Source: a candidate division WOR-3 bacterium
GTDB lineage: Bacteria; Hydrothermota; Hydrothermia; LBFQ01
Direction of reading: 5' to 3'
Length of the DNA stretch: 64,000 bases
Assembly: GCA_039802605.1 (NCBI GenBank)
Contig: JBDRWW010000004.1
Coordinates: 32,001 to 96,000, forward strand
The notes under the pieces were generated by a model. That model did no database searches and was not told where the DNA came from. It saw only the letters and a list, made by a program, of their open reading frames with translations. Both the position numbers and the translations under genes were made by a program. Shown here one piece after another: positions 7,283 through 31,247 of this stretch (its first letter is position 1; the number at the start of each line of letters is the position of its first letter).

Positions 7283-7299
7283 AGCGATTAATGGATAGC

Positions 7300-7455
7300 A
7301 GAGCACTCTATACCCCTTTCCTGACATTTTACAACGGCCACTTCGGCGGGTGAACAGGCCGGACTCTTATCGCGCCAAATTGGTCACCAATTGCCGTATT
7401 CCTTGTATTCCAGTGGGCGTTCACCTCCACTTGGGCACAGGAAGAGGACCCCTCA
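7300..7455 (+). ncRNA. Candidate 6S-like rod-shaped RNA
   Basis: GC-richer intergenic spacer with nested stems CCTTTCCTG(7315-23)/CAGGAAGAGG(7438-47), GGTGAAC(7349-55)/GTTCACC(7419-25) and AATTGG/CCAATT(7378-92), plus an unpaired ACATTTTACAAC bubble; ends and strand are uncertain. Confidence 0.5.
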
Positions 7456-9492
7456 CCGTGTAAAAATCTTCAAAAGTATCCCACCGTATTTGTGGAGTAG
7501 TGGTCCAAACACCAAGGACACTATTGACATCAACTTTATTAATATGTTCATCGATGGACCCGTTGTATCCTTGAAAGGATCGCCAACGGTATCGCCCACA
7601 ACCGCAGCCTTATGGGCATCGGAACCCTTACCCCCGAAATGCCCCTCTTCAATATACTTCTTTGCGTTATCCCAAGCGCCACCGCCGTTTGCCATAAAGA
7701 TCGCTATTAGTGCCCCAACCAGCAACGAGGCACCTAGGAAGAAACCGAGGGCCTCCGTTCCAAAAAGCAATCCCACCAAGATCGGTGCCAAAACGGCGGA
7801 TATACCCGGTAAAACCATTTCCTTTAACGCCGCCTGCGTAACTATATCTATGCACTTATCGTATTGGGGCTTTGCGTTTTCGTCTTCCAGTAGTCTCAAT
7901 TCCCTAAACTGCCTCCTAACCTCTTCAACCATTTTGTTTGCCGCTCTTCCAACGGCGTTGAGGGTTAATGCCGAAATCAAAGCCGGCATTGAGGCACCCA
8001 AAAACGCGCCCACAACGCTTTCAACCTTTGAAAAGTCAAGCTTGTCAAGGCCAACCGTTTCCTTATATGCAAACAAAAGGGCCAAAGCAGCAAGTGCCGC
8101 CGAACCTATCGCAAAACCCTTACCTATCGCCGCCGTGGTATTACCCAAAGCATCAAGTTTGTCCGTTATAGACCTAACTTCCTTACCCAAATGCGACATT
8201 TCCGCAATGCCACCGGCGTTATCCGCTATGGGTCCGTAAGAGTCCGTTGTCATAACTATACCTATGGTTGCGAGCATACCAACGGCCGCCAACGAAACGC
8301 CATATATCCCAAGGCCGGGACTCCCCCAAATCTCCGCGGAGAAATAGCCCAAAAGGAGTGCCAACGCTATGGTGATAAAGGGCAAAACTACGGATTCATA
8401 GGCAACGGCAACGCCGTTTATAATAACGGTAGCAGGGCCGAATTGGGCGGATTCTGCAATCTTCTTTATAGGGTTTCCGGATGTGTAATATTCGCTTTCA
8501 AAACCTATTAGCAGTCCGGCTATTATTCCGGAAACAACTGCTATCCATGTCCCCAAATAACCCACGAGTAGGGAGTTTATAAAGTAAGAACCTATTATAA
8601 ACAAGGCGGCGGCAAATATAGTTGCGTTCCTCAAAGCGGTTTGCGGGTCCGCCTTTTTAAACAGGTCTATTGACCAAACACCCAAAAGGGAGGATATAAG
8701 ACCCCAGGCGGATAAAACAACCGGAAGGCTCGCAAATGTTAAGGATTGATCTTTTAAAGCAAAGGATGCGGCCAATGCTATTGCTACCGTGGAAACCATA
8801 CTACCCACATATGATTCGTAAAGGTCCGCACCCATTCCGGCCGTATCTCCAACATTATCCCCCACATTATCCGCTATAACCGCCGGATTTCTGGGATCAT
8901 CTTCTGGAATCCCCGCTTCAACCTTACCCACCAAATCCGCACCGACATCCGCCGCCTTTGTATATATACCTCCACCCACACGGGCAAAAAGGGCAACGGA
9001 TGATGCACCCATACCGAAACCGCTTAAAACTGTCGGATCCTTTGTGAAGTATAGCCACAAAGCGACACCCAAAAGCCCCAAGGCTGCAACGGTTATACCC
9101 ATAACCGAACCGCCCTTAAAGGCCACGGAAAGGGTATCACCGGCGTTTTTTGTCCTATAAGCGGTATAAGTCGTCCTGACATTTGCAACAGTGGCCGCCG
9201 CCATCCCAACAAAGCCCGCCAAAAGGGAAAGGAAGGCCCCGGTAATATACGCCACACCCACTATTGGCTTTATAAATACTGCAAGAACTATTGCCACTAT
9301 CAGAGCAAATATACCAATATATGTATATTCCCTTCTCAAGAACACGAACGCCCCACTTCTAATAGCCGCCGCGTATTCAAGCATTCTACCTTCACCCGCC
9401 GGAAGGGATTTTATATAAAAATATGTAAGGATTGCTACTAAAAAGCCAACCGCTCCTAAACCCGCGGATATGATAAGGATGGCCATTTCCAT
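7453..9492 (-). CDS. hppA: Membrane-integral pyrophosphatase, K+-dependent (probably Na+-translocating)
   Basis: DVGADLVGKVE, DNVGDNVGD and DTVGDPFKDT motifs; GNTTAA with Ala marks the K+-dependent subfamily; start reassigned to ATG 9492 after a -10 box at 9501-9506. Confidence 0.95.
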   Translation of the reverse strand: MEMAILIISAGLGAVGFLVAILTYFYIKSLPAGEGRMLEYAAAIRSGAFVFLRREYTYIGIFALIVAIVLAVFIKPIVGVAYITGAFLSLLAGFVGMAAATVANVRTTYTAYRTKNAGDTLSVAFKGGSVMGITVAALGLLGVALWLYFTKDPTVLSGFGMGASSVALFARVGGGIYTKAADVGADLVGKVEAGIPEDDPRNPAVIADNVGDNVGDTAGMGADLYESYVGSMVSTVAIALAASFALKDQSLTFASLPVVLSAWGLISSLLGVWSIDLFKKADPQTALRNATIFAAALFIIGSYFINSLLVGYLGTWIAVVSGIIAGLLIGFESEYYTSGNPIKKIAESAQFGPATVIINGVAVAYESVVLPFITIALALLLGYFSAEIWGSPGLGIYGVSLAAVGMLATIGIVMTTDSYGPIADNAGGIAEMSHLGKEVRSITDKLDALGNTTAAIGKGFAIGSAALAALALLFAYKETVGLDKLDFSKVESVVGAFLGASMPALISALTLNAVGRAANKMVEEVRRQFRELRLLEDENAKPQYDKCIDIVTQAALKEMVLPGISAVLAPILVGLLFGTEALGFFLGASLLVGALIAIFMANGGGAWDNAKKYIEEGHFGGKGSDAHKAAVVGDTVGDPFKDTTGPSMNILIKLMSIVSLVFGPLLHKYGGILLKIFTR

Positions 9493-9537
9493 AGGCGTGT
9501 ATTCTAAGGGTGAATTAACACCCCTTAAAATACCCCC

Positions 9538-10899
9538 TTGTTTGGTATTTTTGAGATTTCCCACTACTTTTATAGGGATTACGGCTGGACAAACGCCATA
9601 TTACATGGGGGAAATTCCTATATCATCTTTCAAGATTATCTATCTTCATCCATAGGAAAACGCACGAGAACATTAAATGCCAAACTTTCCTTCCATAAAC
9701 TTAACATACTTTCCGATAACACTTCATCCGTGCGCTCATCCGAGTATTCCCTAGGAATATCTTATAAAATCTCAAATATAGAAGTGGGTGGGGACTTACG
9801 CTTTATAAGGTCGGGTATAATAACGAACAACTCCGGGATATTCCTTTTATTCTCCCCATTAAACCTTAGGGTGGAATACCGCCCACTTCTAAAAACACTC
9901 TTTTTATCCCCAAATATAAGAATAACAAAGTTTAATCACAAATTCACCCTATCTTCGAACGCCGAATACTTTAAATATTCCCTCCCCGGTTTCTCCGAAG
10001 AGGGTTATAGGTATAATTTTAGACCAAGTATATCCTTTGGAAAATCCATAGGGTACAATGCCCATGTGTTATTTGAGAACACGAATTACATAACATCCCC
10101 CACAAAAAACAGGCAAACAACGCTCGGATACTTGGAATTATTCTTAAACCAAAACCTTTGGATAACATCCCATAACATCAAACTTTTAAGGTCTTTGGGG
10201 GAAACAAACTTCCCCGCATTTTCATCCGACAAGTGGGAGGATGTTATCAGGTTTGATTATTCTCCGAAAATATACGACTTTATAGGGTTTAACCTTTACA
10301 TAAGGAGGCTTTTAAACATTTATTCGGGTGTTTTGGATTACCAATCATTCGGTTTGAGGGAAACATTTTCCGAAGGCGAGGTTCTTGCAAAAGACTTTAA
10401 AATCTACCTATCAAGAAAAAGAGAAGATTATGTATATCTCCACCCCTTGAGGTCGTCGGAGAGTAAGGGTTTAACAAAGTATTCCTTGGGGTTTAATTCC
10501 TATATGGGTTCTATTACCATACGTGGGGAACTGGTGGCAATTTACACCCTTTACAGGTTTAAGCCTTCGGAAAACAACCTTAGTAGGTATTTGGAAATTG
10601 AGATAAATTACAAGGGAAATGCCGAAGGGAATTTTAAAATCAGGTTTTCGGACATAGGGTGGTTGTCCAACAACATATATTACAGAACCCTGAATTACAC
10701 AAACATATATTCGCAAGGATGGGTACCATTATTAACGGTTTTGAACTCTAAAATTGGTGGTATTTTCGGTATAAAGCCGGACGGTGCGGGGGTGGGAATA
10801 GGTAGTAGGTTTCCGGGTGGTGAAATGTATATTATGAAAAGGGCAGAGGATAAAAAAAGGTTTTGGGAATTCTCCCTAAGATTCAGCACACCGGTATAA
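9538..10899 (+). CDS. Hypothetical protein, probably an outer-membrane beta-rich protein
   Basis: Long ORF rich in Tyr/Phe/Ser with alternating beta pattern; TAAAAT 6 nt upstream of the TTG. Confidence 0.55.
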   Translation: MFGIFEISHYFYRDYGWTNAILHGGNSYIIFQDYLSSSIGKRTRTLNAKLSFHKLNILSDNTSSVRSSEYSLGISYKISNIEVGGDLRFIRSGIITNNSGIFLLFSPLNLRVEYRPLLKTLFLSPNIRITKFNHKFTLSSNAEYFKYSLPGFSEEGYRYNFRPSISFGKSIGYNAHVLFENTNYITSPTKNRQTTLGYLELFLNQNLWITSHNIKLLRSLGETNFPAFSSDKWEDVIRFDYSPKIYDFIGFNLYIRRLLNIYSGVLDYQSFGLRETFSEGEVLAKDFKIYLSRKREDYVYLHPLRSSESKGLTKYSLGFNSYMGSITIRGELVAIYTLYRFKPSENNLSRYLEIEINYKGNAEGNFKIRFSDIGWLSNNIYYRTLNYTNIYSQGWVPLLTVLNSKIGGIFGIKPDGAGVGIGSRFPGGEMYIMKRAEDKKRFWEFSLRFSTPV

Positions 10900-10908
10900 T
10901 TCCCGTTT

Positions 10909-11310
10909 GTGAAAGTTGATAAAACCTTCCTCCTTAGGGGTTTGTGGGTTGTTATAGCGGCCCTTACTTTGTTATTCTTTATAATTTCCGTTATACCCAA
11001 AAATAAAAAGGAAAAACCTTATACGAGCATAACCGACGAAAAACTCGATGTGGTTGTATTAAACGGCACAAAGATGGACAAATTGGCGTATACCGTATCC
11101 CAGTATTTGAAGGGTAAAGGGGTAGATGTTATATATTACGGAAATGCCGACAGTATATACTCGCATACCCTAATAATAGACCGCAGGGATAGTATAAATT
11201 TATCTTATGCCAAGAGGGTTGCGAGGTTTATAAAAGGGAAAATCATGTATATGCCCGACCCCGATAACATCGCCCCGGTTTTCGTAATACTCGGAAACGA
11301 TTACAAATGA
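10909..11310 (+). CDS. LytR C-terminal domain protein
   Basis: N-terminal TM, then VVVLNGT...LA...L...G.DV...GNAD...VILGNDY. Confidence 0.85.
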   Translation: MKVDKTFLLRGLWVVIAALTLLFFIISVIPKNKKEKPYTSITDEKLDVVVLNGTKMDKLAYTVSQYLKGKGVDVIYYGNADSIYSHTLIIDRRDSINLSYAKRVARFIKGKIMYMPDPDNIAPVFVILGNDYK

Positions 11311-13007
11311 TAACCCTTTTAGTATCGCTTAATATAACCGACATTAGGGTTTCCGGAAACCGTTTTTTAAAAAGCGATTTTATAAAGTCCGTATTAGGTT
11401 ATAAGAGGAATTTCATTTTCTTTAAAAAATACCCAAAGTTTTCCCCTTTTGCGATAAAGAGGGGTATTGAAGTTTTGGAAGGAGTTTATACGGACAGCGG
11501 TTTTTTTGATGTCAAAATTGAATGGAACAGAAGCGTTGAGAAAAACGGCGTTGTGATATTTTTAAACATTTACGAGGGTAAAAGGTATGTTATAAACGAC
11601 ATTGTTGTTCCTGAGGATTTACGGATAAAATTTTCCCTTCCAAAGCCCTATACCATAACATATGTATCCAGCGTAGAGGAAAAAATCCTAAGTTATTATA
11701 GGAATCACGGGTATCCCTTTGTTGAAGTAAATAGGGAAGAATACAAGGACTACGAGAACAAAACCGTAAAAATCGTTTTTTCCGCTTCAAAGGGTGATAG
11801 AATAATTATTAGAAATGTAATTTGGAAAAGCGCCGACACCACAAAACCTTTAAACACCCGCTGGAAGATTTTCAAAAGGGAAATAAAGGTAAAGGGTGGA
11901 GAGTTTTTTAAGGAAAGGGATGTGGAGGAAAGCATAAGCCGTTTATACAGAACACAATTGTTTAACACCGTATTTTGGAAGCTTGAAAATGTCAAAGACG
12001 GATATGCCGACTTGGTGTTTTATGTAAAGGAAGGCCCTCCGAGGATCTTGGATTTAAGCTTTGGTTTTCAAAGCGAGACCAAGCACCCAATACTTATAAA
12101 ACTTGAAAATGTATTCCAACACATAAACCTATTCAACAACCTCCAAAGGGTTCAGCTATCTTCCTATTTATTGGTTGATGTTGCAAATACAAACCTAAAC
12201 GCTTATAACATAAGGGTCTTATATCAAGAACCATACTTTTTGGATTTTAACCTCCGTGCAAATTTTAACATTCCGGTTTTTTACGATCGTGATAGAAACC
12301 TTTTTCAATACGGATTGGCGGGGGAAATTACCAAACCCTATTTTTTTGGCGAAAATAACTCTTTAAACTTTGGGCTATCTTACGACAAAAGGAAGGCGTT
12401 ATCCGATGAACAGGGTTATGACATATTCCGCCTTTATCAAAGCGTGTTTTTTGATACCCGGGATAATATATTTGATCCGGACTTTGGGAGCTTCCTTAGG
12501 TTTGAAATTTATGAAGCGGGCTTTGGTTATTTGGGTAATTACGATTATATAAAATGGGTATCGGATATCTCACTTTATCAAAGGTTCTTTTTAAGCGAGT
12601 GGAAATGGGCCCTTAGATTATATTTTGGGGGTATTTCCCCGTATATAAGAAGCGATACCCTTCCCATAATAGACCTTTTTACCGTAGGCGGTGAGGGACA
12701 AGTTAGGGGATATGATAGGTTTTCCATAGGACCGGATTTAAAGCGATGCTATTCATACATATGTAAAGCCGGCCGGTATCCCCTTCTGTTTAATTACGAG
12801 ATAAGGAGAAAAATAAACGATTACTGGGGTTTTGTCCTGTTCTTTGATTATGGGTATTTGGATGGGGATAAGGGGTACTCCGGTGGAATGGGTATAAGGT
12901 ATTTTACACCCATAGGGCCCATAAGGTTTGATTGGGCTATAAAATTAAAGGAAAGATCTCCCACGGATAGGGGAAAGATTTATATAAGTCTAGGTCATAT
13001 GTTTTAA
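11307..13007 (+). CDS. Omp85 family protein (BamA/TamA-like) with POTRA domains
   Basis: POTRA repeats (ITDIRVSGN, GYPFVEV), GGEGQVRGY, GIRYFTPIGPIRFDWA, C-terminal LGHMF. Confidence 0.9.
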   Translation: MITLLVSLNITDIRVSGNRFLKSDFIKSVLGYKRNFIFFKKYPKFSPFAIKRGIEVLEGVYTDSGFFDVKIEWNRSVEKNGVVIFLNIYEGKRYVINDIVVPEDLRIKFSLPKPYTITYVSSVEEKILSYYRNHGYPFVEVNREEYKDYENKTVKIVFSASKGDRIIIRNVIWKSADTTKPLNTRWKIFKREIKVKGGEFFKERDVEESISRLYRTQLFNTVFWKLENVKDGYADLVFYVKEGPPRILDLSFGFQSETKHPILIKLENVFQHINLFNNLQRVQLSSYLLVDVANTNLNAYNIRVLYQEPYFLDFNLRANFNIPVFYDRDRNLFQYGLAGEITKPYFFGENNSLNFGLSYDKRKALSDEQGYDIFRLYQSVFFDTRDNIFDPDFGSFLRFEIYEAGFGYLGNYDYIKWVSDISLYQRFFLSEWKWALRLYFGGISPYIRSDTLPIIDLFTVGGEGQVRGYDRFSIGPDLKRCYSYICKAGRYPLLFNYEIRRKINDYWGFVLFFDYGYLDGDKGYSGGMGIRYFTPIGPIRFDWAIKLKERSPTDRGKIYISLGHMF

Positions 13008-13027
13008 CGGCCTTAGAATACACATAT

Positions 13028-14095
13028 ATGGTTGCACCTTTTAAAAGGAGGAAGAGCAGGGAAGTTAGAATCGGAAATGTCGTTATAGGGGGTGATAACC
13101 CCATTGCGGTACAATCAATGACAACAACGGATACAAACGATGTTGAGGCTACTATTGCCCAAATAGAGAGGCTAGTCAATGCGGGTTGTGAAATAGTCAG
13201 GGTTGCCGTTCCCTCGAGAAAAACCGTTGAACCCTTTAAAAGGATAGTTGAACATTTTAAGGGTAGGGTTCCAATAGTTGCCGATATCCATTTTGATTAT
13301 AAAATAGCCATAATGGCCGCGGATGCGGGGGCGGATAAGATAAGGATCAACCCGGGAAACATTGGGGGTTTTGACAAGGTTAAAGAGGTCATAGCGGCCG
13401 CAAAGGCAAACAATATTCCTATAAGGATAGGCGTAAACTCCGGCTCCCTTGAAATGGATCTAATTGATAAATACGGCGGGGTAAACGCCGACGCCCTCGT
13501 TGAAAGCGCGGTTAGGTGGGTAAGATTTTTTGAGGAACAAAACTTTTACGATATCGTCGTATCGGTTAAGTCCGCCTATGTTCCCCAAATGATAGAGGCT
13601 TATAGAAAGGTGGCACAACTGATAGATTACCCATTACATTTGGGCGTTACGGAAGCCGGCACTCCAAAGACCGGTATAATAAAATCCGCCATAGGTATAG
13701 GTACCCTTTTGGCAGAGGGCATAGGGGATACTTTTAGGGTTTCTTTAACCGCAGACCCAGTGGAAGAGGTTAGGGTTGCTTGGGAAATACTAAAATCCCT
13801 ACAACTCAGGACAAGGGGTATAATGCTTATAGCATGCCCAACCTGTGGTAGAACAAAGATAGACCTCATATCCCTTGCGGAAAAGGTAGAAAAGGCTCTG
13901 GATGGGGTTAATAAGAACTTGAAGGTTGCGGTTATGGGTTGCGAGGTAAACGGCCCGGGCGAGGCTAGGGAGGCGGACATAGGCATAGCGGCGGGTAAGG
14001 GGCAGGGAATACTCTTTATCAAGGGGAAACCCGTAAAAAGGTTAAAGGAGGAGGAGCTGTTAGACGCTTTGCTTGAAGAGATAGAAAAGCTATGA
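13028..14095 (+). CDS. ispG: 4-hydroxy-3-methylbut-2-en-1-yl diphosphate synthase
   Basis: PIAVQSMT, VADIHF, RINPGN, CPTCGR, VMGCEVNGPGEA. Confidence 0.97.
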   Translation: MVAPFKRRKSREVRIGNVVIGGDNPIAVQSMTTTDTNDVEATIAQIERLVNAGCEIVRVAVPSRKTVEPFKRIVEHFKGRVPIVADIHFDYKIAIMAADAGADKIRINPGNIGGFDKVKEVIAAAKANNIPIRIGVNSGSLEMDLIDKYGGVNADALVESAVRWVRFFEEQNFYDIVVSVKSAYVPQMIEAYRKVAQLIDYPLHLGVTEAGTPKTGIIKSAIGIGTLLAEGIGDTFRVSLTADPVEEVRVAWEILKSLQLRTRGIMLIACPTCGRTKIDLISLAEKVEKALDGVNKNLKVAVMGCEVNGPGEAREADIGIAAGKGQGILFIKGKPVKRLKEEELLDALLEEIEKL

Positions 14096-21668: not shown

Positions 21669-22798
21669 AAATAGGAACTATATGCGTGCATGCGGGACTT
21701 GAACCGGATGAAACAACGGGTGCAATATCCCCCCCAATATATCAAACATCAACATATGTTCAGGATGAGCCCGGAAAACCCAAAAGGGGTAAATACGAGT
21801 ATAGTAGAACAATAAATCCCACAAGGGAAAGGCTTGAAGAGGCGATCGCCAAACTCGAAGGGGTAAAATACGGTTTGGCCTTCTCATCGGGTATGGCCGC
21901 AATTGATACGGTATTAAAAAACCTTGAAGTGGGCTCTACCGTTTTGTGCGAGGAGGATGCATACGGGGGAACAAAGAGGATATTGAACTATTATCAAAGA
22001 AGGGGTTATTTAAGGGTGTATTATTTGGATTTTAAGGATTACGAAAACTTGGCATTGGCGGTGGAAACCCTAAAACCGAATATAATATGGTTTGAAACAC
22101 CAACAAACCCATTAATGAAGGTAATAAACATAAAAAGGGTGGTTGATATAAGGGATGTAAAAAGTCCGAAGAGTTTAATAGTGGTTGATAATACATTTGC
22201 ATCGCCCATTATACAAAGGCCTGCGGATTACGGGGTTGATATAATAATACACAGCGGAACGAAGTATTTGGCGGGGCATAGCGATGTGGTCATAGGTTTG
22301 ATCGCAACGGATAAAGAAGAGATTTACAAAGAACTGAAATTTTTACAGAATGCGGCGGGTGCGGTTCCTGGCCCATTTGACTGCTTTTTAACCCTTAGGG
22401 GTATAAGGACATTACATTTAAGGGTTAAAGCCCATAGCGAAAACGCATACGAAGTTGCGCAATTTCTAAAAGGGCATCCTAAGGTTGAAAGGGTTTATTA
22501 TCCGGCATTTGATGAAGATGCAAAGGGTCAAATGGCGATGTTTGGGGGTATGCTATCGGTTAGGTTTAAAGATGAAGATACCGCTTTAAAGTTTGTAAAG
22601 GGTTTAAAACTGTTTTTCATTGCGGAAAGTCTTGGGGGTGTTGAAAGTTTGGTATCAATACCCGCCTTAATGACCCATGCCTCCCTACCCTACGAGGAAA
22701 GGATTAAAAGGGGCATAGATGAACGGCTTGTAAGGTTGTCGGTGGGGGTTGAGGATAAGGGGGATATTTTAGAGGATATTAAAAATGCTTTAACTTAA
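21665..22798 (+). CDS. Cystathionine gamma-lyase/synthase (Cys/Met metabolism PLP enzyme)
   Basis: PPIYQTSTY, YEYSR, ETPTNP, DNTFA, HSGTKYLAGHSD, ESLGGVES. Confidence 0.93.
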   Translation: MKIGTICVHAGLEPDETTGAISPPIYQTSTYVQDEPGKPKRGKYEYSRTINPTRERLEEAIAKLEGVKYGLAFSSGMAAIDTVLKNLEVGSTVLCEEDAYGGTKRILNYYQRRGYLRVYYLDFKDYENLALAVETLKPNIIWFETPTNPLMKVINIKRVVDIRDVKSPKSLIVVDNTFASPIIQRPADYGVDIIIHSGTKYLAGHSDVVIGLIATDKEEIYKELKFLQNAAGAVPGPFDCFLTLRGIRTLHLRVKAHSENAYEVAQFLKGHPKVERVYYPAFDEDAKGQMAMFGGMLSVRFKDEDTALKFVKGLKLFFIAESLGGVESLVSIPALMTHASLPYEERIKRGIDERLVRLSVGVEDKGDILEDIKNALT

Positions 22799-22845
22799 CA
22801 GCGGGGGTGTTCAAAGTAGTCGGTTTATTGCGTTGAAAGGGGCAG

Positions 22846-23086
22846 ATGGATATATACCACGAGGCCGTTTTATCCTTCGCAAGTGAGTACATAAATAGGC
22901 TTGTTAATCATAATGCCTTTGAGCGGGGGCGATCAAAACACTTTACAAAATCAACTTATACGGCTTTATTATTCTTACCCTATGAAAAGGGGGGATACGG
23001 TTAAAATGTTAAGGGGTTTGAATGAAGTTAAAAACGAGGAATTGGGCGACTTAAAGGAGGAGGTTAAGGATATGGTTTTAAAATAG
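22846..23086 (+). pseudogene. Probable frameshifted gene remnant at the left flank of the island
   Basis: ATG 22846 (MDIYHEAVLSFASEYINR) and an overlapping frame ending ...EEVKDMVLK at 23086; host-like codons; no recognisable family. Confidence 0.35.
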
Positions 23087-23097
23087 GAGGTTGAGGT

Positions 23098-26000
23098 ATG
23101 AGGATAATAAGCGGTAAATCTTTAAGGAAGATATTAGCAAAAGGGCGCTCAGGCTATGATTTGGATTTTGTGGGTTATGAGCACAAAGGTAAATACGGCT
23201 TTTTCAACTTTATGCACGGTGAGAAAGATGATATAAGGAACTATTTAGAGAGTATATTAAAGACGGCTAACGATGATCAGGTTATAGATGAATTTATACA
23301 AAACGCCTTTGATGCTAATGCAACGAAGGTTTATATAATCCTCATTGAAGAAAAATACCTATTGGTTATAAACAACGGTAAAAAGTTTAAAATTCAAGAG
23401 ATAAAGAATATCCTAAACATAGGGCAGAGTGAGAAGTCAAAGGATTGTAGCAAGATAGGTAAGTTTGGGATAGGTTTTAAGTTGATTCATAGGCTTGTAG
23501 GCTCTGGGACGGGTATAAACGAAATTATGAATTACAAAGGGCCTATAATGTTCTCTTGGAATAACGGTGGTTTATGTAAAATCGTAGGAAAAACACCAGA
23601 GGATATTTTGAATTACATACAAGACTGTCCAGAGGATATATTGAATTACCTACAATACTGTAAAAACGAAAAAAAAATTGTGGATTACCAATTCCTTTTC
23701 AAGTTCATACTAACAGCATTCCCTACAACACCCGGCGAGATCGTGAAAGATTTAAAATATAAAGAGGATGAACTTTTTAAAAAAGATGAGTTTGAAACTT
23801 TCTTAAATGTTGTAAGGAAAGCTATAGGAAAACAACATATAAACTTTGAAGAGGGCAGTTTGTTTTTTGTCGAAGTTCCGAAAGAAAAGATGGAAATCTT
23901 GGAAAAAAACAAACAAAATATACAAGATGCCTTGGAGTATTCCCTTGCTATAATATCAAAACACTACTCTAAGAACAACTTGGAGGTTTTTCTTTTTGAT
24001 CAAAAAATAACACCACCAAAGAATGTTAAAGTTGTTGATATAAGTGGGAATGAAAAAACTGATGATAATTGTGATGAAAAGACATACCTAATATATCCCG
24101 TTGATGGTAATAAGCCGAACTTTTACCTATTTTTCCCGGTTAGAGATGAAAGGCATAAATGGAATATAGCATTGCATTCAAATCTGTTTAAAACCCAATC
24201 AAACAGGACAAAGTTAGATAATACTTGTTATCCAGAAATAGATTATGTTCTTGATAGGGTATTAAGGGTATTAAGAAATAACCAAAACAAAGACCTGCTA
24301 AAAGCGATAATACAAAGCAATATATGCGATGCAAATTGCCAAATATGTGAAAAGTTTAAAGTGTTTGTGAGTAAAGTTCTTAAGATATGGCCGACTTATG
24401 ATTGTGATCCGGATAATTTGACGCCATTAAATCAAACCGGAAAAAATCCTGCTATAAAGGACAGTGATGTAAATATCAAACCACCGGATGGTTATGTATG
24501 GCTTTGGGATGACAATGGTAATTTAAGGGCTAATTTGGAAGCATGGCTTAATAAAACCGGGGAAAAATATTATAAGATGCATATAGTTGATATATTGGAC
24601 AAACATTATAAACTGAGAATAAACGATATAACGCGAGTCCTATGCACAGAAAATTATGTAGATGAGATAAATAAAATACACAATGAGATGGTTCAATTGC
24701 TTAATACATCAAAAGTGCAATCCAAAGATATAATTAAAACTTTTGATAACTGGAACATTTTGGCTTTTCAAAATTCATCAAATCAAACAGATTTTTTGAA
24801 TATATCGGGTTATCATCAAAAAATTAACCAAGGATACATTGTTTTGAGCAAGGGACATCCCGAAACCCAAGAAATAAAAAAGTTAATGCAAGGTTTTTGG
24901 ATAGCCGAAATTCCGGAAGATATATTCTCAAAGTTAACAAAGTTAAAAAACAACATGAGGCATTTCATTGATTGGGTAAATTCTCAACAAAGATCTTGGG
25001 ATATTAGCTCAAAAAAGGAAATCCTTCAAATTTGTATAAATATTTCGGATCAAAAAATAAGTAGTGGGTATTGGGGTGGTTATACAAGCAATACAATTAG
25101 GGATTTAAAAATTTTTAAGAGTGCTAACGGGCAAACCAAACCCCTTAGAGAATTAATACAACATAGTGGAAAAAACTGGTTAAACGATTGGATAATGGAT
25201 AAAAATGAGTATATTCAAGTTCAGGGCTTGGTAGATCAATACCTTATGACCGATGAGGAGATTTATGATAATATATATGTAAATAAATTATCGGAATTTA
25301 TTCAAAACTCAAGTAATGCTAATGATATTTTAGACGATGCTTTTGCTTTATATCAAAAAATTACAAACAAACAACCTTGTCAGGGTTTCAGCAATAAGTA
25401 TTACCATAGGAAACTTAATAATAATGTTATTAGTGCCCTTAAAAAACTTGGCATAAATGTTATAGAAGACTATGTGTTTAATTGGATAAATGGGGATAAA
25501 CAAAAAGAAAATATGCTGGGGTTAAACCAATATCACCAGCAATTATCAAATTACTTGATTAACAATAACAATAACTTCACTCTTCAACAAAGTCAAATAA
25601 ACCAAAACGAGTTTCAAAACTTGATAGATTTCCTTTCGCAAACGGGAGATAGCAGCTTTTTCCAGCATTACATCTTTGAAGAGAATAATTATCAATATAC
25701 CCTAATCAAGAAGGGGAATAATGAACAGGTTTATTTGGGGGAAAATATAAACCCGCAATTAAAGAGTTTTCTCAAACAAAACCACATATATGTTATAGAA
25801 AATCAAAACATTAGTCAATATATTGGAAACATTGGAATAAAAAAGGGTAAAAAGGAAATTGTTGAAAAATTAAACATAACAGTTGATATTACATACAATA
25901 ACGGTAATATAACCGAAATTTATGTGAAGGGGAGTAATAATTCTCCCCTAAATTGGGAAAACAATCAAAACAACAATAAAGATGCCATAGCACAACTTTT

Positions 26001-26832
26001 GGAATGGATTATAATCAACTGGAATAAAAATTGGAAACAAAAAATAAATATAAACTCTCAAAATTTAACCAATTACTCAAGTAAGCAGTTTAAAAATAGA
26101 AAATGGGAAAATTTGGGCTTGGATATAAATCAAATAATAATTACCCAACAAAACTTCAATACTAATGACTTCTCTCAGGTTTTGGCGGGATTTATAGGAA
26201 ATAACAATTTACAGCAAGATATAAACAACAACTTCTTTGATCCTATTGAATTGGAAGATAATGAAATTTACAGTCAAATACGAAATCCAGACAACGACCA
26301 CCAAAAGGTTTTTGTTCTGTTGTATGAGTTGGAAAATAATAATGTATCACAATCCAAATTTACGAATAACCAAATTCAAAAATTAAACATAAATTCAAAT
26401 TCGGGGTTAGAAATAGACAAAATTAAAGAAGAAATTAGGGTTTTATCTAACGAAAGTAAAATTCCACCTATGATAATTGAACCGTTTTTAAAAGAAAGTA
26501 TTATTATCCACTACCCTGTAAATGGAGATAATGAAAAGAAAAAGCTTATGAAAAAACTCTACGAAGAATGGAAAAACATAAAACCTGGTAAAATAAACTT
26601 TGTTTGCAATTGGAAAAATAAAAGTTGCGAATGCGGATTTAATGATTTTGAGAAATACATATACCCTGACGATTTGGCAATTGAAACCGAGAAAATACCA
26701 GACTGGCTAAGGGTTAATAACAATAATAATGATTTTAAAGAGTTCTTAAAAGTTTTAGGGGTAAGGGTTAAGGATAAAAATGAGGATGATGAGGTTAAAT
26801 TAAGGAAGAAAATAAAGGAAAAGGAGGTGTAA
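23098..26832 (+). CDS. Large sacsin-like GHKL ATPase protein (1244 aa)
   Basis: N-box EFIQNAFDA (about 23290), NNGKKF, NIGQSEK, G2 IGKFGIGFK (about 23455), then YLFFPV...LHSNLF..QSNRTKL as in sacsin/Nov; strong SD AGGAGG; Asn/Gln-rich remainder. Confidence 0.8.
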   Translation: MRIISGKSLRKILAKGRSGYDLDFVGYEHKGKYGFFNFMHGEKDDIRNYLESILKTANDDQVIDEFIQNAFDANATKVYIILIEEKYLLVINNGKKFKIQEIKNILNIGQSEKSKDCSKIGKFGIGFKLIHRLVGSGTGINEIMNYKGPIMFSWNNGGLCKIVGKTPEDILNYIQDCPEDILNYLQYCKNEKKIVDYQFLFKFILTAFPTTPGEIVKDLKYKEDELFKKDEFETFLNVVRKAIGKQHINFEEGSLFFVEVPKEKMEILEKNKQNIQDALEYSLAIISKHYSKNNLEVFLFDQKITPPKNVKVVDISGNEKTDDNCDEKTYLIYPVDGNKPNFYLFFPVRDERHKWNIALHSNLFKTQSNRTKLDNTCYPEIDYVLDRVLRVLRNNQNKDLLKAIIQSNICDANCQICEKFKVFVSKVLKIWPTYDCDPDNLTPLNQTGKNPAIKDSDVNIKPPDGYVWLWDDNGNLRANLEAWLNKTGEKYYKMHIVDILDKHYKLRINDITRVLCTENYVDEINKIHNEMVQLLNTSKVQSKDIIKTFDNWNILAFQNSSNQTDFLNISGYHQKINQGYIVLSKGHPETQEIKKLMQGFWIAEIPEDIFSKLTKLKNNMRHFIDWVNSQQRSWDISSKKEILQICINISDQKISSGYWGGYTSNTIRDLKIFKSANGQTKPLRELIQHSGKNWLNDWIMDKNEYIQVQGLVDQYLMTDEEIYDNIYVNKLSEFIQNSSNANDILDDAFALYQKITNKQPCQGFSNKYYHRKLNNNVISALKKLGINVIEDYVFNWINGDKQKENMLGLNQYHQQLSNYLINNNNNFTLQQSQINQNEFQNLIDFLSQTGDSSFFQHYIFEENNYQYTLIKKGNNEQVYLGENINPQLKSFLKQNHIYVIENQNISQYIGNIGIKKGKKEIVEKLNITVDITYNNGNITEIYVKGSNNSPLNWENNQNNNKDAIAQLLEWIIINWNKNWKQKININSQNLTNYSSKQFKNRKWENLGLDINQIIITQQNFNTNDFSQVLAGFIGNNNLQQDINNNFFDPIELEDNEIYSQIRNPDNDHQKVFVLLYELENNNVSQSKFTNNQIQKLNINSNSGLEIDKIKEEIRVLSNESKIPPMIIEPFLKESIIIHYPVNGDNEKKKLMKKLYEEWKNIKPGKINFVCNWKNKSCECGFNDFEKYIYPDDLAIETEKIPDWLRVNNNNNDFKEFLKVLGVRVKDKNEDDEVKLRKKIKEKEV
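23596..23661 (+). repeat. In-frame 33-bp tandem duplication (PEDILNYIQDC / PEDILNYLQYC)
   Basis: ccagaggatattttgaattacatacaagactgt then ccagaggatatattgaattacctacaatactgt. Confidence 0.9.
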
Positions 26833-26833
26833 T

Positions 26834-29800
26834 ATGAGTTGGCAAAACACCATTCAATGGCTTAAAGACAAAACCGTTAAAATGGATATAAAAGATAATG
26901 ATGAGATTTTAGAACTTTTATCCAAATGTTTGAATTCGCAGGGCCAAAATCAAAATATCGTCGTTCCTGTCCTTACCCAAAAAAACGGGATCTTGGCATA
27001 TAGGTTTGAAGAAATAAAAACAAATGATGACTATATTTTTTATACAGATGAAGATTTGAATAGCTTAGGCTTGGATGAAAATGTATTATTACAAAGTTTA
27101 AACAACACTAAACTCGTATGGGCTGGAAAGGATAACCAAAGCAAAAACTGGAAAAGTTTGCTTGATAATCAAAAAGATATAAATTCCCTTGTTCAACCGA
27201 GTAAAAACCACTTAGATAGCAACTTACCCAATGATGTTTTAAACAATAACAATATAAACAATATATACATTTACGATGGCCGGATATACTTAAACATCAA
27301 AGGTGTTGATATACCTTCAAATAAAAACCATATACCTCTAAATGGAAATAATTTATACAAAAACGATAACGAGTTTAAAGATATATGGGATTATATTGGA
27401 CAAAATCTATATCCAGACTTCTCTCCGGATGATTCCAGCATTAATAGCAGCCTTGATGCCGAGGTGGTTAAAGAGTATATGAAACAGAAGAAAAAGGACA
27501 TTATTATCTTCAATGGCAGTATAAAAATAAAGGATAAGAACGGCAAGATTTACACGATTTCAAAAGACGAAGTAGTATTTGGAAATGCAGTATATTATAA
27601 GGATTTATTAACTTGTAAAACTAAAAATAACATAACTTATAATGACCCAATAACATTTGCCATTCAAAACAACATTTTCACACCAAATGTTATTATTCAA
27701 GGATTTAATAAAAATAACGCGTCTGCCTTCTTACAGCAATTACAAAAACATAAGGTTGAAGTCCTGAAAGTCATAGAAGGGAAAGTTGAAAATCTTTCCC
27801 ACAACAAACTTTCCATCGAATTAACCGTTGAATGGCTTTTCTGGGCTACAATATGGGAATATTTGGAAACATATATAACTCCACGAAAACTAAAAATTAC
27901 ATCAAACTATATATATTATGAAAACCAAAACAAAATCGTTATACCTATGGATTATAAGGTTGGTATTGAAGAAATTGAGATTAAATACTTAGAATTATAC
28001 TTACTCGGAAATGTTAAACTTTATTCCGCTAATCAGGGAATTGATAACTTGGGTTGGAATAATGACGGTTTGGCTTTACAAATACAACCAAATTGGACGG
28101 GGGGAGATATACCGGATAAACTAAATTGTGGTGGTGCAAGCTATGATTTGGCGATTAACAATAAGGGCGAAATAGTTGTAAAAAACAATCCTCAACTTTC
28201 TGGAATAGGAACAATTAACGGGGTTCAAGTTAAAGTAAATAACGGAAAAGTTGAAATGCATAATAACAAACCGATACCCTTAAAAATCTTTGCAAAAATT
28301 GAATACAATGCAAGCCAGATTTTTAGGGATATAGTGGTTAATTACTTTTCGGGGATAATAAACACATCCGTTTGGCAAAGTAAAATTTCCGAGGAAATCG
28401 CTAAAATTATAAATCAAGCTCCCAACAACGGAAACCAAAGCAACCCACCATTCGTTTGGGGACCACCGGCAACCGGAAAAACCACATATTTGGCAAATAG
28501 AATAATTGATTACCTTAATAATGGTAAAAAGGTAATAGCCCTTACACCCACAAATAAGGCGGCGGATGTGTTAATAGAAAGAATTTTAAGTGAAAACCCG
28601 TCCGCAAATGCTTATAGGTTCCCAAACACAAGATCCAATAATCCAAATGTACATCAAAAAATTCTAAGACGGGATGGTAGCCCCCCATCCCCTCCGTACG
28701 CAATCATAACCACAATCCACAGGTTTATATTTGACAGTATCCAAAATCAGAAACTGGAATCCTTGGATTGGGATGTTGTTATTATTGATGAGGCTTCAAT
28801 GGTTGAATTGCCTTTTGTGTTTTATGTAATTCATAGTTATATAAATAGTTATATAAATAAAAAAGTTGAGTTAATCATAGCGGGGGATCCGGAGCAGTTA
28901 ACCCCCGTGGGTAAAACACCCGGAGAAAAGCGAAACATTAAGGGTTATTCAACGGAAAACATCTATACGGTTTTGGATTTGACTTTTAATAATGTTAATA
29001 TTAATCGTAATAATACACGGGTTAATGTCGGGGTAAAGAGTTTTCAGGTCATACCCTACACACACAAAATAAACAACCAAAACATAAATGTAATAATTTT
29101 AACAGAACAACACAGAAGTGTCCAGGAAATAGGTGAGGTATATAGCCGCTATCGTTATGGAGGGAAATTAACCCATACAAGGGGGTCTTCAAGTGGAAAG
29201 ATAACCATAAACTTTTACAATAACCAAATTACAATATCGCCCATAACGGTAATAGAGTTTGACATTAGTTCCTCGTCCGGAATACCCACAAGTCCCAACG
29301 ATATTGGAAAACTGGAATATTCATCTTATCATCTGTTTTCGGCAGTTTTGGCCGTTGAGTTGGCAAAAGAACTGGAAAATCAATTGAGAGATTACAACAT
29401 AGGTATAATTTCTCCTTATGGAGCTCAGGTAAAGATTATGAGACAATTGGCTGGGCCTTATAGCTTGAGTTTAACGAGAACAACCGTTGATACCGTTCAC
29501 GGTTTTCAAGGAGATGAGAGGGATATTATAATATTAGTAATGAACCCACCTTCTCAAAAACCCGGCCCACACTCACACTTCAACAATCACAGAATAGTGA
29601 ATGTTGGAATAAGCCGTGCGAAGGATTTCTTAATAATATTAAAACCGGCAATTATAACCAATTCCGAAATTGATAATGCTTTAAGCCATGCTCGAAGCCT
29701 TCCAAAAATTAACAGTAATATAGTGAATCAAATAAATAACAAAATAGAAATCTTCAGCCACCTTGAAGTTAATTTATATTCTCAAAGTTTGCTATCTTCC

Positions 29801-29860
29801 ATGACCAAAAATTATATATTCTTCATAGATTGGGATGTGCTGGATATTTTGGTTAAATAG
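26834..29860 (+). CDS. SF1B (UPF1/DNA2-like, AAA_11/AAA_12) helicase with a long unknown N-terminal region (1008 aa)
   Basis: GPPATGKT (about 28460), TPTNKAAD, IIDEASM, GDPEQL, QHRS, ISPYGAQ, TVHGFQGDE, NVGISRAK; SD AAGGAGGT within the end of the upstream gene. Confidence 0.88.
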   Translation: MSWQNTIQWLKDKTVKMDIKDNDEILELLSKCLNSQGQNQNIVVPVLTQKNGILAYRFEEIKTNDDYIFYTDEDLNSLGLDENVLLQSLNNTKLVWAGKDNQSKNWKSLLDNQKDINSLVQPSKNHLDSNLPNDVLNNNNINNIYIYDGRIYLNIKGVDIPSNKNHIPLNGNNLYKNDNEFKDIWDYIGQNLYPDFSPDDSSINSSLDAEVVKEYMKQKKKDIIIFNGSIKIKDKNGKIYTISKDEVVFGNAVYYKDLLTCKTKNNITYNDPITFAIQNNIFTPNVIIQGFNKNNASAFLQQLQKHKVEVLKVIEGKVENLSHNKLSIELTVEWLFWATIWEYLETYITPRKLKITSNYIYYENQNKIVIPMDYKVGIEEIEIKYLELYLLGNVKLYSANQGIDNLGWNNDGLALQIQPNWTGGDIPDKLNCGGASYDLAINNKGEIVVKNNPQLSGIGTINGVQVKVNNGKVEMHNNKPIPLKIFAKIEYNASQIFRDIVVNYFSGIINTSVWQSKISEEIAKIINQAPNNGNQSNPPFVWGPPATGKTTYLANRIIDYLNNGKKVIALTPTNKAADVLIERILSENPSANAYRFPNTRSNNPNVHQKILRRDGSPPSPPYAIITTIHRFIFDSIQNQKLESLDWDVVIIDEASMVELPFVFYVIHSYINSYINKKVELIIAGDPEQLTPVGKTPGEKRNIKGYSTENIYTVLDLTFNNVNINRNNTRVNVGVKSFQVIPYTHKINNQNINVIILTEQHRSVQEIGEVYSRYRYGGKLTHTRGSSSGKITINFYNNQITISPITVIEFDISSSSGIPTSPNDIGKLEYSSYHLFSAVLAVELAKELENQLRDYNIGIISPYGAQVKIMRQLAGPYSLSLTRTTVDTVHGFQGDERDIIILVMNPPSQKPGPHSHFNNHRIVNVGISRAKDFLIILKPAIITNSEIDNALSHARSLPKINSNIVNQINNKIEIFSHLEVNLYSQSLLSSMTKNYIFFIDWDVLDILVK

Positions 29861-29864
29861 CATT

Positions 29865-30406
29865 GCTTTCCTTATAGCGCTAAAGACTATTTCACCCCCA
29901 TCGCTTTTCCTTAGTAAGAGTATTCACCGCAAAAGATTTTTAATTCCTCGCTGAGGCTAACGAATACCTTTTGGTTTGCCACCTTTTCCCAAGGAAAAAC
30001 ATCATCAAAAACCCCTTAGAAGTCCCTTACCCATTGGAGCGCATTATCCAACAAAAAGAAAAGCGGGATAATAATCCCCTTTGTCTATTACCTTCTTTAA
30101 GTGGGCATAGGCTAATATCCTCCTGAAAAATATTTCAAGGGTATAGAGGGTAAAGGAATCGTGAGGATTACCCACACTTGTGGGTATCAACAGTTTTTGT
30201 TCGGGTATCCCCGTATAAAGTGATGTGATATATTTCCGTTTTGCCCGGAATACCAAAGGTATATATCCTTTAAATGCTTTAACACTTTGGGATTTTTTTA
30301 GAAGTTGTTTAAAAGGGTTTTGGCTTTGGAAGATTCATTCATATAAAAATTAAGGCATATTACAGCTATATCCTTTAAGCAGTTTGTCCATGCTCTTGGG
30401 TACCGT
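29865..30406 (-). pseudogene. Decayed gene at the right flank of the island
   Basis: Protein-like text over several frames broken by stops and shifts (LKDIAVICLNF...*, KYITSLYTG...DYYPAF, DNALQWVRDF*GVFDDVFPWEK); TATAAT(30416-21)-N9-ACG suggests a mutated start codon. Confidence 0.5.
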
Positions 30407-30455
30407 AGGGTTGGAATTATAAATCGGAAAACCCCTCAACTTTATAATACCCAGT

Positions 30456-31247
30456 ATGCTTTTAAACATTTCCGAATATGAAGAGGTTTTAAACTTTTAT
30501 GAGGAAATAAACAAAAAGGAGATTCAGCCAAAAAGGCTTGAAATTGACAGGGATAGGGATTTGTTCCAACAAACCATAACAAAACTTTCCGAATTAGGGG
30601 TATTAGACCAAGAAAACAACGAATTCCCATTACAGGTTAGGCTTTTGGCAATAATAACCCTTGCAAAGGGAGAACCTTCAATATCCCAATATGTTGGAAA
30701 GACTTGGGCTTTGGGGGATTTGGGGCTTGCAAGGTCGGAAAGTTTGGTTCAGTTTCCAAACGAGAGGGTTTATTATAACGGTAAAATAGCGGAGTTTGAG
30801 GGGGAAGGGGTTGAGGTTTTGGGGCTTAGGGCGTGTGGTTGGGCAAAGGGAAAGTTAAAGATTTTGGAAGATTATCCATTTGAAGTGCAACAAACCCTAC
30901 TCTTTTATGATATAGCCACATTAACCGGCATATCCTTGGCGGCTATGGAAGAGGCGGAGAATTACGCTAAGGAGAGGGTGGCCTTTGGAAAACCAATATA
31001 TGAATTTGAAGAGGTGAGGGGTTTCATAGAAAGGGGTAAATCCTTTGCGGAAGCTTTGAAAACCGCTCTCCTTTTAACGGATAACCCGGAAAAATTACTT
31101 AACTTGGCCATTGAAACCGCATACTTTTGCACGGATAAAGCATTACAGATATTCGGGGGGTACGGCTTCATAAACGAGTATCCCGTTCAAAAGTTTTTAA
31201 GGGATGCGAGGATGTTGAGGAGTTTGCTCATAAGAATGGTTCAATGA
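30456..31247 (+). CDS. Acyl-CoA dehydrogenase-family protein (short, degenerate N-terminal part)
   Basis: YAKERVAFGKPI and ALQIFGGYGFINEYPVQKFLRDAR; only 263 aa. Confidence 0.8.
   Translation: MLLNISEYEEVLNFYEEINKKEIQPKRLEIDRDRDLFQQTITKLSELGVLDQENNEFPLQVRLLAIITLAKGEPSISQYVGKTWALGDLGLARSESLVQFPNERVYYNGKIAEFEGEGVEVLGLRACGWAKGKLKILEDYPFEVQQTLLFYDIATLTGISLAAMEEAENYAKERVAFGKPIYEFEEVRGFIERGKSFAEALKTALLLTDNPEKLLNLAIETAYFCTDKALQIFGGYGFINEYPVQKFLRDARMLRSLLIRMVQ

Follow-up and report, generated by a model that had tools for sequence, protein, structure and literature searches.

A Tiamat-like ATPase and an Upf1-like helicase encoded as a split two-gene cassette in a candidate division WOR-3 bacterium

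Results

The cassette and its two genes

The DNA analysed here, referred to as the window, is a stretch of 64,000 nucleotides (nt) from a candidate division WOR-3 bacterium (assembly GCA_039802605.1, contig JBDRWW010000004.1, positions 32,001 to 96,000 of the forward strand), and holds at positions 23098-29860 a two-gene cassette that reads as a split, helicase-bearing member of the Tiamat (TmtA) group of proteins. The first open reading frame, ORF1 (23098-26832, plus strand, 1244 amino acids (aa)), encodes a Tiamat-like ATPase of the GHL/sacsin type, which has the Tiamat core but lacks a PD-(D/E)xK nuclease domain, and the second, ORF2 (26834-29860, plus strand, 1008 aa), an Upf1-like superfamily 1 (SF1) helicase with a rare N-terminal extension. 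A first-pass annotation of this DNA, made from the letters alone, had described two large co-oriented ORFs of these sizes 1 nt apart, each preceded by a Shine-Dalgarno sequence; the coordinates were confirmed, and a GGAGG-type Shine-Dalgarno sequence lies upstream of the ATG of both genes. Between 22600 and 30600 there is no excess of promoter-like sites (39, against 36.0 ± 6.5 in shuffled sequences) or of terminator-like sites (8, against 5.6 ± 2.6).

The GHKL (Bergerat) ATP-binding domain of ORF1 (23227-23502, plus strand, residues ~44-135) contains the N-box EFIQNAFDA with E65, N69 and D72, the motif NNGKKF (NNG at 92-94) and the motif GKFGIGFK (GxxGxG at 121-126). The columns of these motifs are nearly invariant in a 25-sequence alignment, and matches to Pfam SACS (4.2e-12) and HATPase_c_3 (1.4e-8) and to NCBIfam P_loop_sacsin (1.4e-18) agree with the intact GHKL/sacsin module reported in the first pass. 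The whole of ORF1 is matched by the PADLOC model for TmtA (PDLC03970, E = 1.6e-96), with residues 1-1243 corresponding to profile positions 1-1223 of 1552, and BLASTP aligns residues 1-895 colinearly with P0027, a canonical relative of 1663 aa (27% identity over 982 columns). The proposal that the cassette was an undescribed, unnamed system fails on this match, and on the Tiamat-like types set out in a recent preprint (10.64898/2026.09.30.754977).

A word-indexed protein search returned 127 relatives of ORF1, most of those listed being 1150-1800 aa long and many carrying PF13020. In the canonical relatives (1550-1750 aa) the NOV_C nuclease domain lies at the C-terminus, at residues 1534-1627 of 1663 in P0027 and 1555-1619 of 1646 in P0025. 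Searched with Pfam at E <= 0.1, ORF1 gave no match to NOV_C (PF13020/DUF3883) or to DUF3684, and neither ORF1 nor ORF2 matched any nuclease family, in accordance with the nuclease motif having been reported as absent. Given that the TmtA match ends at profile position 1223 and that NOV_C is missing, ORF1 is taken to be a Tiamat-family protein without the PD-(D/E)xK nuclease. Clusters near-identical to ORF1 are labelled candidate division WOR-3 bacterium, among them P0003, which is 97% identical, 1243 aa long and has 25 member sequences. A further protein, P0004, from a 285-kb contig labelled candidate division WOR-3, is 94% identical to ORF1 and 934 aa long (76% query coverage), and may be a truncated or differently called copy from a close strain. 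Just after the ATPase domain (23596-23661) ORF1 carries a 33-nt tandem duplication in perfect register, the copies of which are 91% identical and encode PEDILNYIQDC and PEDILNYLQYC.

ORF2 begins with the sequence MSWQNTIQWLKDK. Its helicase consists of two RecA-like domains (28424-29653, plus strand, residues ~531-940), with the Walker A lysine K549, DEAS at 652-655 and motifs III to VI, and is preceded by stalk helices and a beta-barrel (27719-28423, plus strand, residues ~296-530) that resemble domain 1B of Upf1-like helicases. The motifs GPPATGKT, DEAS, GDPEQLTPV, QHRS, TVHGFQGDERD and NVGISR are of the Upf1 type and invariant among three orthologues, upholding the full UPF1/DNA2-type set that had been reported. 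The Pfam matches are to AAA_11, AAA_12 and AAA_19, and the best solved relatives in a PDB sequence search are IGHMBP2, Sen1 and Nam7/Upf1; ORF2 has the features of an Upf1-like (SF1B) helicase, namely motifs I to VI and, ahead of motif I, an inserted 1B beta-barrel carried by stalk helices. The C-terminal tail (29654-29860, plus strand, residues 941-1008) has no Pfam match and is conserved in the family, being aligned in all three orthologues, with tblastn matches that reach residue 1008 in locus L020 and residue 1007 in locus L095.

Upstream of the stalk, ORF2 has two further parts. The first comprises helices and a hairpin (26840-26998, plus strand, residues 3-55), which are predicted to bind the ORF1 C-terminus and resemble the module just upstream of the nuclease in one-piece Tiamats, and the second is a beta-rich region with no assigned fold (26999-27718, plus strand, residues ~56-295), built mostly of beta-hairpins. 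The AlphaFold2 (AF2) model of the ORF2 N-terminus, made from 6 sequences, has a mean predicted local distance difference test (pLDDT) score of 84.6 and is confident in the beta-rich region, where block pLDDT is mostly 75-96. When the model of residues 1-530 was compared with the PDB by Foldseek, a check proposed in the first pass, no match at E <= 0.001 was returned and the top rows had template modelling (TM) scores of 0.05-0.13; the toxin and other entries in that list were rejected as noise, not similarity. Residues ~56-295 had no Pfam match and residues 1-300 no usable match in the ESM Atlas, the fold searches being filled by residues 301-513. Similarly, no PIN domain was matched by Pfam in ORF2, either for the whole protein (E <= 0.1) or for residues 1-300 (at 0.05), and the fold searches barely touched residues 1-300.

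The N-terminal half of ORF2 is very rare: searched exhaustively with HMMER against 1.84 billion representatives, residues 1-530 gave seven matches. Two of these are short pieces of ORF2 (98-100% identical), two agree in length with the partner proteins from genomes G011 and G008 described below (1052 and 1064 aa) and three are helicases of 917, 912 and 679 aa, the 917- and 912-aa proteins (P0127 and P0128) being helicases with the ORF2-type N-terminal module. Of the first 300 residues only F58 is invariant across the five family members that have the region, which makes a conserved catalytic site in residues ~56-295 less likely. A relative on contig L016 (581-2989), 78% identical to ORF2, lacks ~235 residues within the N-terminal region (positions 160-396 of the hidden Markov model (HMM)), implying that the beta-rich part is dispensable or variable in the family.

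Genome G003, of the same genus, encodes a stand-alone helicase of the ORF2 family of ~680 aa, spread over two contig ends (L104 3134-4033 on contig C1 and L105 3-1157 on C34), which is 51% identical to ORF2 in the core (44-51% in pieces), is without the N-terminal ~310 residues and adjoins no Tiamat-like gene; on one side lie genes for an enoyl-CoA hydratase and a GT2 glycosyltransferase, and on the other an M14 peptidase gene. The absence of both the N-terminus and a Tiamat-like neighbour fits an adaptor role for the ORF2 N-terminus, in this single case. In summary, of the ~1400 aa between the two motors in which no domain had been recognised, all that belongs to ORF1 is colinear with Tiamat and ORF2 residues ~300-530 are stalk and 1B-like, leaving residues ~56-295 of ORF2 unassigned. 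The suggestion that the sensor or effector lies in this middle part is reduced accordingly, most of it being Tiamat core and Upf1-type accessory domains, to a region with almost no invariant residues.

A conserved gene pair for what is usually one fused protein

Tiamat (TmtA) is the subject of two bioRxiv preprints dated 1 October 2026 (10.64898/2026.09.30.754977 and 10.64898/2026.09.30.755639). The main text of the former describes Tiamat-like types without the nuclease (Type II-A) or with a UvrB-like (Type III-A) or an Upf1-like helicase (Type III-B) in its place, and reports that a helicase gene adjoins ~33% of Tiamat-like genes, including those of Type II-B, where an Upf1-like helicase is fused to a PIN domain (10.64898/2026.09.30.754977). 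The word 'split' does not occur in that main text, the supplements lying outside this check.

An ORF1 relative was found in four of the 41 genomes searched, namely the window's own, G002, G008 and G011, the last two being of the same family as the window's genome. The G011 pair (locus L006) encodes proteins of 1320 and 1052 aa with a 4-nt overlap of the genes and has a TonB-type receptor nearby, and the G008 pair (locus L007) encodes proteins of 1293 and 1064 aa with an 8-nt overlap, near genes for a penicillin-binding protein transpeptidase, pantothenate kinase and LepA; at both loci only the two genes are present, with no further insert genes. The gene pair thus lies at three different loci in three genomes, with ORF2 identical over its full length to the extent of 42% with its G011 counterpart and 40% with that of G008. 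On contig L016 (2991 bp) the 78% identical ORF2-like gene mentioned above is preceded by the final part of an ORF1-like gene. The ORF1-like proteins of G011 and G008 end at TmtA profile positions 1220 and 1224, and in the family alignment, where they are 27% and 21% identical to the ORF1 part used, the ORF1-like proteins of all three split systems stop at one and the same column, directly behind a conserved "...LGV...LRK" stretch. One-piece Tiamats continue past this column into an N-[ST]-x-x-W-L-x-[ED] segment.

The fused arrangement was examined in metagenomic loci of the nearest relatives of the ORF2 helicase, of which 80 were kept from 332 hits. A GHKL head and a helicase share one stop-to-stop ORF of ~1450-2300 aa in 56 of these loci and occupy separate ORFs in two, while the remaining 22 show no GHKL match, the contig start cutting the ORF in 10 of them; a scan of the genomes with alignment A1 yielded only two loci. 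The fused protein P0130 (2289 aa) covers TmtA profile positions 1-1470 and continues into a helicase 33% identical to ORF2, although no similarity could be detected between the ORF2 region before the helicase and the matching part of P0130 or of P0121. As judged from these alignments, the two genes are conserved as a unit and represent, in split form, a protein that is usually fused, the position of the cut being conserved as well.

Together the two proteins have 2252 aa, close to the 2289 aa of the fused P0130, and the fused state is the commoner one, raising the possibility that the split is an artefact of assembly or sequencing, or that a fused gene of Type III-B has recently suffered a frameshift, and that the locus encodes one ~2250-aa protein or a pseudogene. 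This is exceedingly improbable for several reasons: first, G011 and G008 have the same split column at the identities given above, and L016 is split as well. Second, ORF2 has its own ATG and Shine-Dalgarno sequence. Third, the 97% identical cluster P0003 ends at 1243 aa in a group of 25 member sequences. Finally, contigs from four other studies retain two ORFs: compared with the window over positions 26300-27400 they show few substitutions, with indels inside the ORFs of 3, 9, 21, 9 and 12 nt, all multiples of three. This restriction to in-frame indels indicates that ORF1 and ORF2 are both under selection on the coding frame. At the gene junction itself all four other-study runs share a 5-nt deletion at 26823. 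As we read it on the window sequence, this deletion would move the ORF1 stop three codons on, to a TGA overlapping the ORF2 ATG (ATGA), with the genes staying separate. The junction DNA is present in runs labelled hot-springs metagenome from nine studies, and none of the 24 runs listed that carry it is an RNA run.

Gene junction and predicted docking

At the gene junction (26820-26836, plus strand) the GGAGG Shine-Dalgarno sequence of ORF2 lies inside the end of ORF1 and is followed by the TAA stop, one spacer base and the ORF2 ATG. The position of this ribosome-binding site within the last codons of ORF1 suggests coupled translation. The last helix of ORF1 (26788-26829, plus strand, residues 1231-1244) is the predicted docking surface for ORF2.

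A complex model of ORF1 residues 959-1244 with ORF2 residues 1-300 gave interaction prediction scores from aligned errors (ipSAE) of 0.70, 0.73 and 0.74, compared with 0.00 for the best control. The runs have at least 96% of contacts in common, with a partner pLDDT of at least 84. Of 157 solved complexes 116 reach the mark used for such scores, as do two of 215 mismatched pairs; these counts are only a rough guide here, where our own alignments were used. The confident contacts are between ORF1 residues 1193-1198 and 1231-1244 (model rows 794-799 and 832-845, respectively) and ORF2 residues 3-32 and 50-55. The model supports binding between the two proteins, independently of the sequence comparisons, and predicts that the last ORF1 helix sits on the opening helices of ORF2. 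An HMM of the first 120 residues of the ORF2 family scored at least 10 bits in five of 120 real Tiamat proteins and in none of 600 shuffled ones; the matches start from HMM position 4-5 and fall in a consistent place, ~200-430 residues before the Tiamat C-termini.

Insertion site and horizontal acquisition

The GC content of ORF1 is 0.308 and that of ORF2 0.340, giving 0.322 for the cassette in a 1.65-Mb genome of 0.413. In sliding windows of 6.76 kb the genome has a mean of 0.413 and a standard deviation (sd) of 0.020, placing the cassette 4.5 sd below the mean, and just 9 of the 3006 windows have a GC content at or below 0.322; all those that come within 0.01 of the cassette value, other than the cassette itself, fall in one region, on contig C10. 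In G003 the site is empty: a Cys/Met pyridoxal phosphate (PLP)-enzyme gene is followed by a 277-aa acyl-CoA-dehydrogenase-like gene and then by a P-type ATPase gene, whereas in the window the neighbours of the same site lie 7.66 kb apart (22798 to 30456). The description of an AT-rich insert among housekeeping genes is therefore upheld by both the composition and the empty site. G001 shows the same adjacency without the cassette, with fragmentary matches to the PLP enzyme, and in G004 the contig breaks on both sides of the site.

The insert has flanks of its own, both of which are missing from G003. The 5' flank (22799-23097, plus strand) holds what remains of a 108-aa ORF, here 61 aa long (22901-23086), and the 3' flank (29861-30455, unstranded), to which no gene is assigned, recurs in four pieces at 75-89% identity on contig C39 of G002; a 70-aa minus-strand ORF within it has no Pfam or PADLOC match. 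G002, of the same genus, has the cassette at the same site, with an ORF1 fragment 80% identical to ORF1 at a contig end and the same 3' flank on C39. Between its PLP gene and ORF1 it carries two more genes (locus L015, contig C14, minus strand), one for a 496-aa protein with the ARPP-1 domain (758-2248; PF20208, 2.4e-32) and one an intact 108-aa ORF without family (441-767). The family PF20208 (ARPP-1) owes its name to an association with conflict systems. The window has no ARPP-1 gene and its 108-aa ORF is reduced to 61 aa, blastn aligning window positions 23004-23078 to the G002 ORF. Downstream, the 263-aa ORF at 30456-31247 aligns end to end, at 57% identity, with the 277-aa gene of G003, and is thus an intact conserved gene rather than a remnant; the gene remnants that had been placed on both sides of the insert are real upstream and not downstream.

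Given the low GC content and the empty site in a genome of the same genus, the cassette is, on these comparisons, a real, intact, horizontally acquired two-gene module. This agrees with the earlier proposal of a horizontally acquired two-motor module of a defence-type family, as do the three loci and the patchy distribution (four of 41 genomes), which had been put forward as a check. The data count against the opposite case, a core gene conserved in synteny in all relatives, as the locus differs from genome to genome and the site is empty within the genus.

The flanks with their truncated small ORF, the gene-free 3' flank, the two additional genes in the G002 insert and the near-identical P0004, a 934-aa version that covers 76% of ORF1, would also suit a cassette that is cargo of a decayed mobile element, serving that element by excluding competitors or in an addiction-like manner and stranded in the window as a remnant. 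This is distinctly unlikely: around the insert no integrase, transposase or tRNA target was seen, and none of 33 direct and 15 inverted repeat families makes convincing terminal repeats. Furthermore, G011 and G008 carry the two genes alone, and both ORFs are intact with their motifs, the variants having in-frame indels only inside the ORFs.

Discussion

Relation to known systems

The cassette is identified by its domains and alignments as a member of the Tiamat-like group and not as a new kind of system. It shares with Tiamat the N-terminal Hsp90-like GHL ATPase, including the N-box catalytic glutamate (E65 in ORF1, E44 in the Bacillus cereus protein as described in the preprint), and a long core colinear with TmtA profile positions 1-1223. 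It differs in that ORF1 lacks the PD-(D/E)xK (DUF3883/NOV_C) nuclease and in that Tiamat, as presented there, is a stand-alone gene, whereas ORF1 has a helicase gene kept directly downstream in the window, G011, G008 and L016. The preprint reports that B. cereus Tiamat gives Escherichia coli modest protection against phages T5 and T6 that is abolished by E44A, and that the purified protein is an ATPase that cleaves single-stranded DNA and nicks double-stranded DNA (10.64898/2026.09.30.754977). As ORF1 has no nuclease, the single-stranded DNase activity of that protein is not to be assumed for it.

Among the helicase-containing types set out in the main text of that preprint, Type III-B has the same domain content and order, namely GHL ATPase, Tiamat core and an Upf1-like helicase in place of the nuclease. 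It is one polypeptide, whereas here there are two, cut at a conserved point and joined by a predicted non-covalent interface, and ORF1 stops at TmtA position 1223 where the fused forms run to ~1470. The neighbourhood of Type II-B is similar in that a nuclease-less Tiamat-like gene lies directly beside an Upf1-like helicase gene; its helicase is fused to a PIN nuclease, a domain for which ORF2 gave no Pfam match at E <= 0.1 and the unassigned N-terminal region of ORF2, mostly beta-hairpins with F58 as the one invariant residue, was barely covered by the fold searches. The coupling of a GHL ATPase to an SF1 helicase is also seen in MutL with UvrD, a functional analogy only (10.64898/2026.09.30.754977): there is no sequence relationship beyond the superfamilies, ORF2 being Upf1-like and not UvrD-like, and ORF1 has the sacsin/Tiamat core instead of the MutL transducer and endonuclease domains.

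MkoA and MkoC of Mokosh are likewise Upf1-like helicases, and ORF2 matches both in PADLOC (7.6e-29 and 4e-16, respectively). The match is limited to ORF2 residues 645-935, at profile positions 791-1072 of 1112. Mokosh is defined by a PLD nuclease, and no match to a PLD-type nuclease was found in the cassette or its flanks. In summary, the cassette is a distinct variant of the Tiamat-like group: nuclease-less, helicase-armed, divided at a conserved site where the two parts are predicted to dock, and with a region of ~240 residues in ORF2 that has no assignment. Automated tools probably label the locus simply "Tiamat" despite the missing defining nuclease.

A proposed mechanism and the evidence against it

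It is suggested that the cassette works by a two-subunit, defence-type mechanism, a reading that we regard as probable if by no means assured and in which we infer that the cassette serves defence, what it acts on and in what order the events occur. ORF1 carries the ATPase head and the long Tiamat core, ending where one-piece Tiamats go on to a linker and the PD-(D/E)xK nuclease, and ORF2 opens with what looks like the short helical module from after that point and goes on through the beta-rich region, to which no fold is assigned, to a complete 5'-3' SF1 helicase of the Upf1-like kind, stalk and 1B barrel included. The two proteins would be made as a translationally coupled pair, and the N-terminal helices of ORF2 would clamp the last helix of ORF1, restoring the one-piece architecture. 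Upon ATP binding ORF1 may dimerise via its ATPase heads, as GHL proteins do, while its core would recognise an invader-derived ligand or nucleic acid. The tethered ORF2 helicase would then be the effector, acting on single-stranded DNA or RNA by unwinding it, stripping it or passing it to host nucleases; the hand-over to host nucleases is proposed because the cassette has none of its own.

A number of observations weigh against this reading. To our knowledge no helicase-type Tiamat-like protein has a phage phenotype, and the cassette contains no nuclease or other obvious toxic effector. The window contains no defence island, clustering in such islands being a check proposed in the first pass: three of the 51 other ORFs have a PADLOC match at or below 1e-5, all of them partial matches to generic domains, and the neighbours of the G011 and G008 cassettes are housekeeping genes with no defence context. 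As a consequence, the case for defence is built on the precedent of the family and the indications of mobility. With regard to docking, the complex score expresses the confidence of a model and is no measurement, and the structure model of the ORF1 core is poor (pLDDT 62). In addition, the hhalign comparison of the ORF2 N-terminal family with the Tiamat family gave a probability of 0.2% over 16 columns, and the reverse HMM, built from the canonical Tiamat columns past the end of ORF1, reached at best 5.9 bits against ORF2-family N-termini, a score equalled or exceeded by eight of 1800 shuffled decoys; homology between the ORF2 N-terminus and the Tiamat pre-nuclease module is thus a weak proposition.

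Upf1-like helicases are classically surveillance enzymes, and the housekeeping neighbours in all three genomes, with no defence island, could also surround a system of nucleic-acid maintenance outside defence. By analogy with MutL and UvrD, the GHL ATPase would in that case recruit and load the SF1 helicase for repair, recombination or RNA quality control. The MutL-UvrD analogy is itself drawn in the preprint, which also places Tiamat-like proteins in non-defence neighbourhoods and notes eukaryotic relatives with developmental or neuronal roles (10.64898/2026.09.30.754977). We consider such a role unlikely, given that synteny and a native composition would be expected of a core function: an ORF1 relative occurs in four of 41 genomes, the pair lies at a different locus in each of three genomes, and the cassette has a GC content 4.5 sd below the genome mean at a site that is empty in a genome of the same genus.

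A wider version of the two-subunit, defence-type reading can be put forward as a doubtful possibility. Here the split would mark a portable docking socket of the Tiamat family, made of the last ORF1 helix and the helical adaptor of the effector, to which effectors (nuclease, helicase or peptidase) are swapped as fusions or as subunits; in addition, defence or policing would proceed nuclease-free, with a sensor-tethered Upf1-like translocase as the sole effector, and ORF2 residues ~56-295 would be a new domain for the recognition of a substrate or invader.

Helicase forms of Types II-B and III-B are already in print as preprint descriptions, and what is particular here is the split form with its conserved cut and predicted docking. 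A natural two-piece form offers a handle on how the Tiamat ATPase head talks to its effector: the split lets the sensor/ATPase part be separated from the effector part, and the helicase can be tested alone as the output. The predicted interface is sharply bounded, with ~14 residues on one side and ~50 on the other, and the proteins may suit structural work, since the organisms are found in hot-spring metagenomes.

Other observations

Two further window ORFs, both on the minus strand, have PADLOC matches that look generic: 61528-62382 matches mad2 (7e-14) at profile positions 296-400 of 492, and 63302-63949 matches the CARF_LolE_TM model (4e-7). The low-GC region of contig C10 (C10:12000-29000), where the GC content falls to 0.27, carries restriction-modification genes on the minus strand (genes at ~5843-13292 within the region), which encode a ResIII/SWI2-SNF2 helicase of 985 aa, an 855-aa N6_N4 methylase, a TdeIII-type restriction endonuclease and a second methylase.

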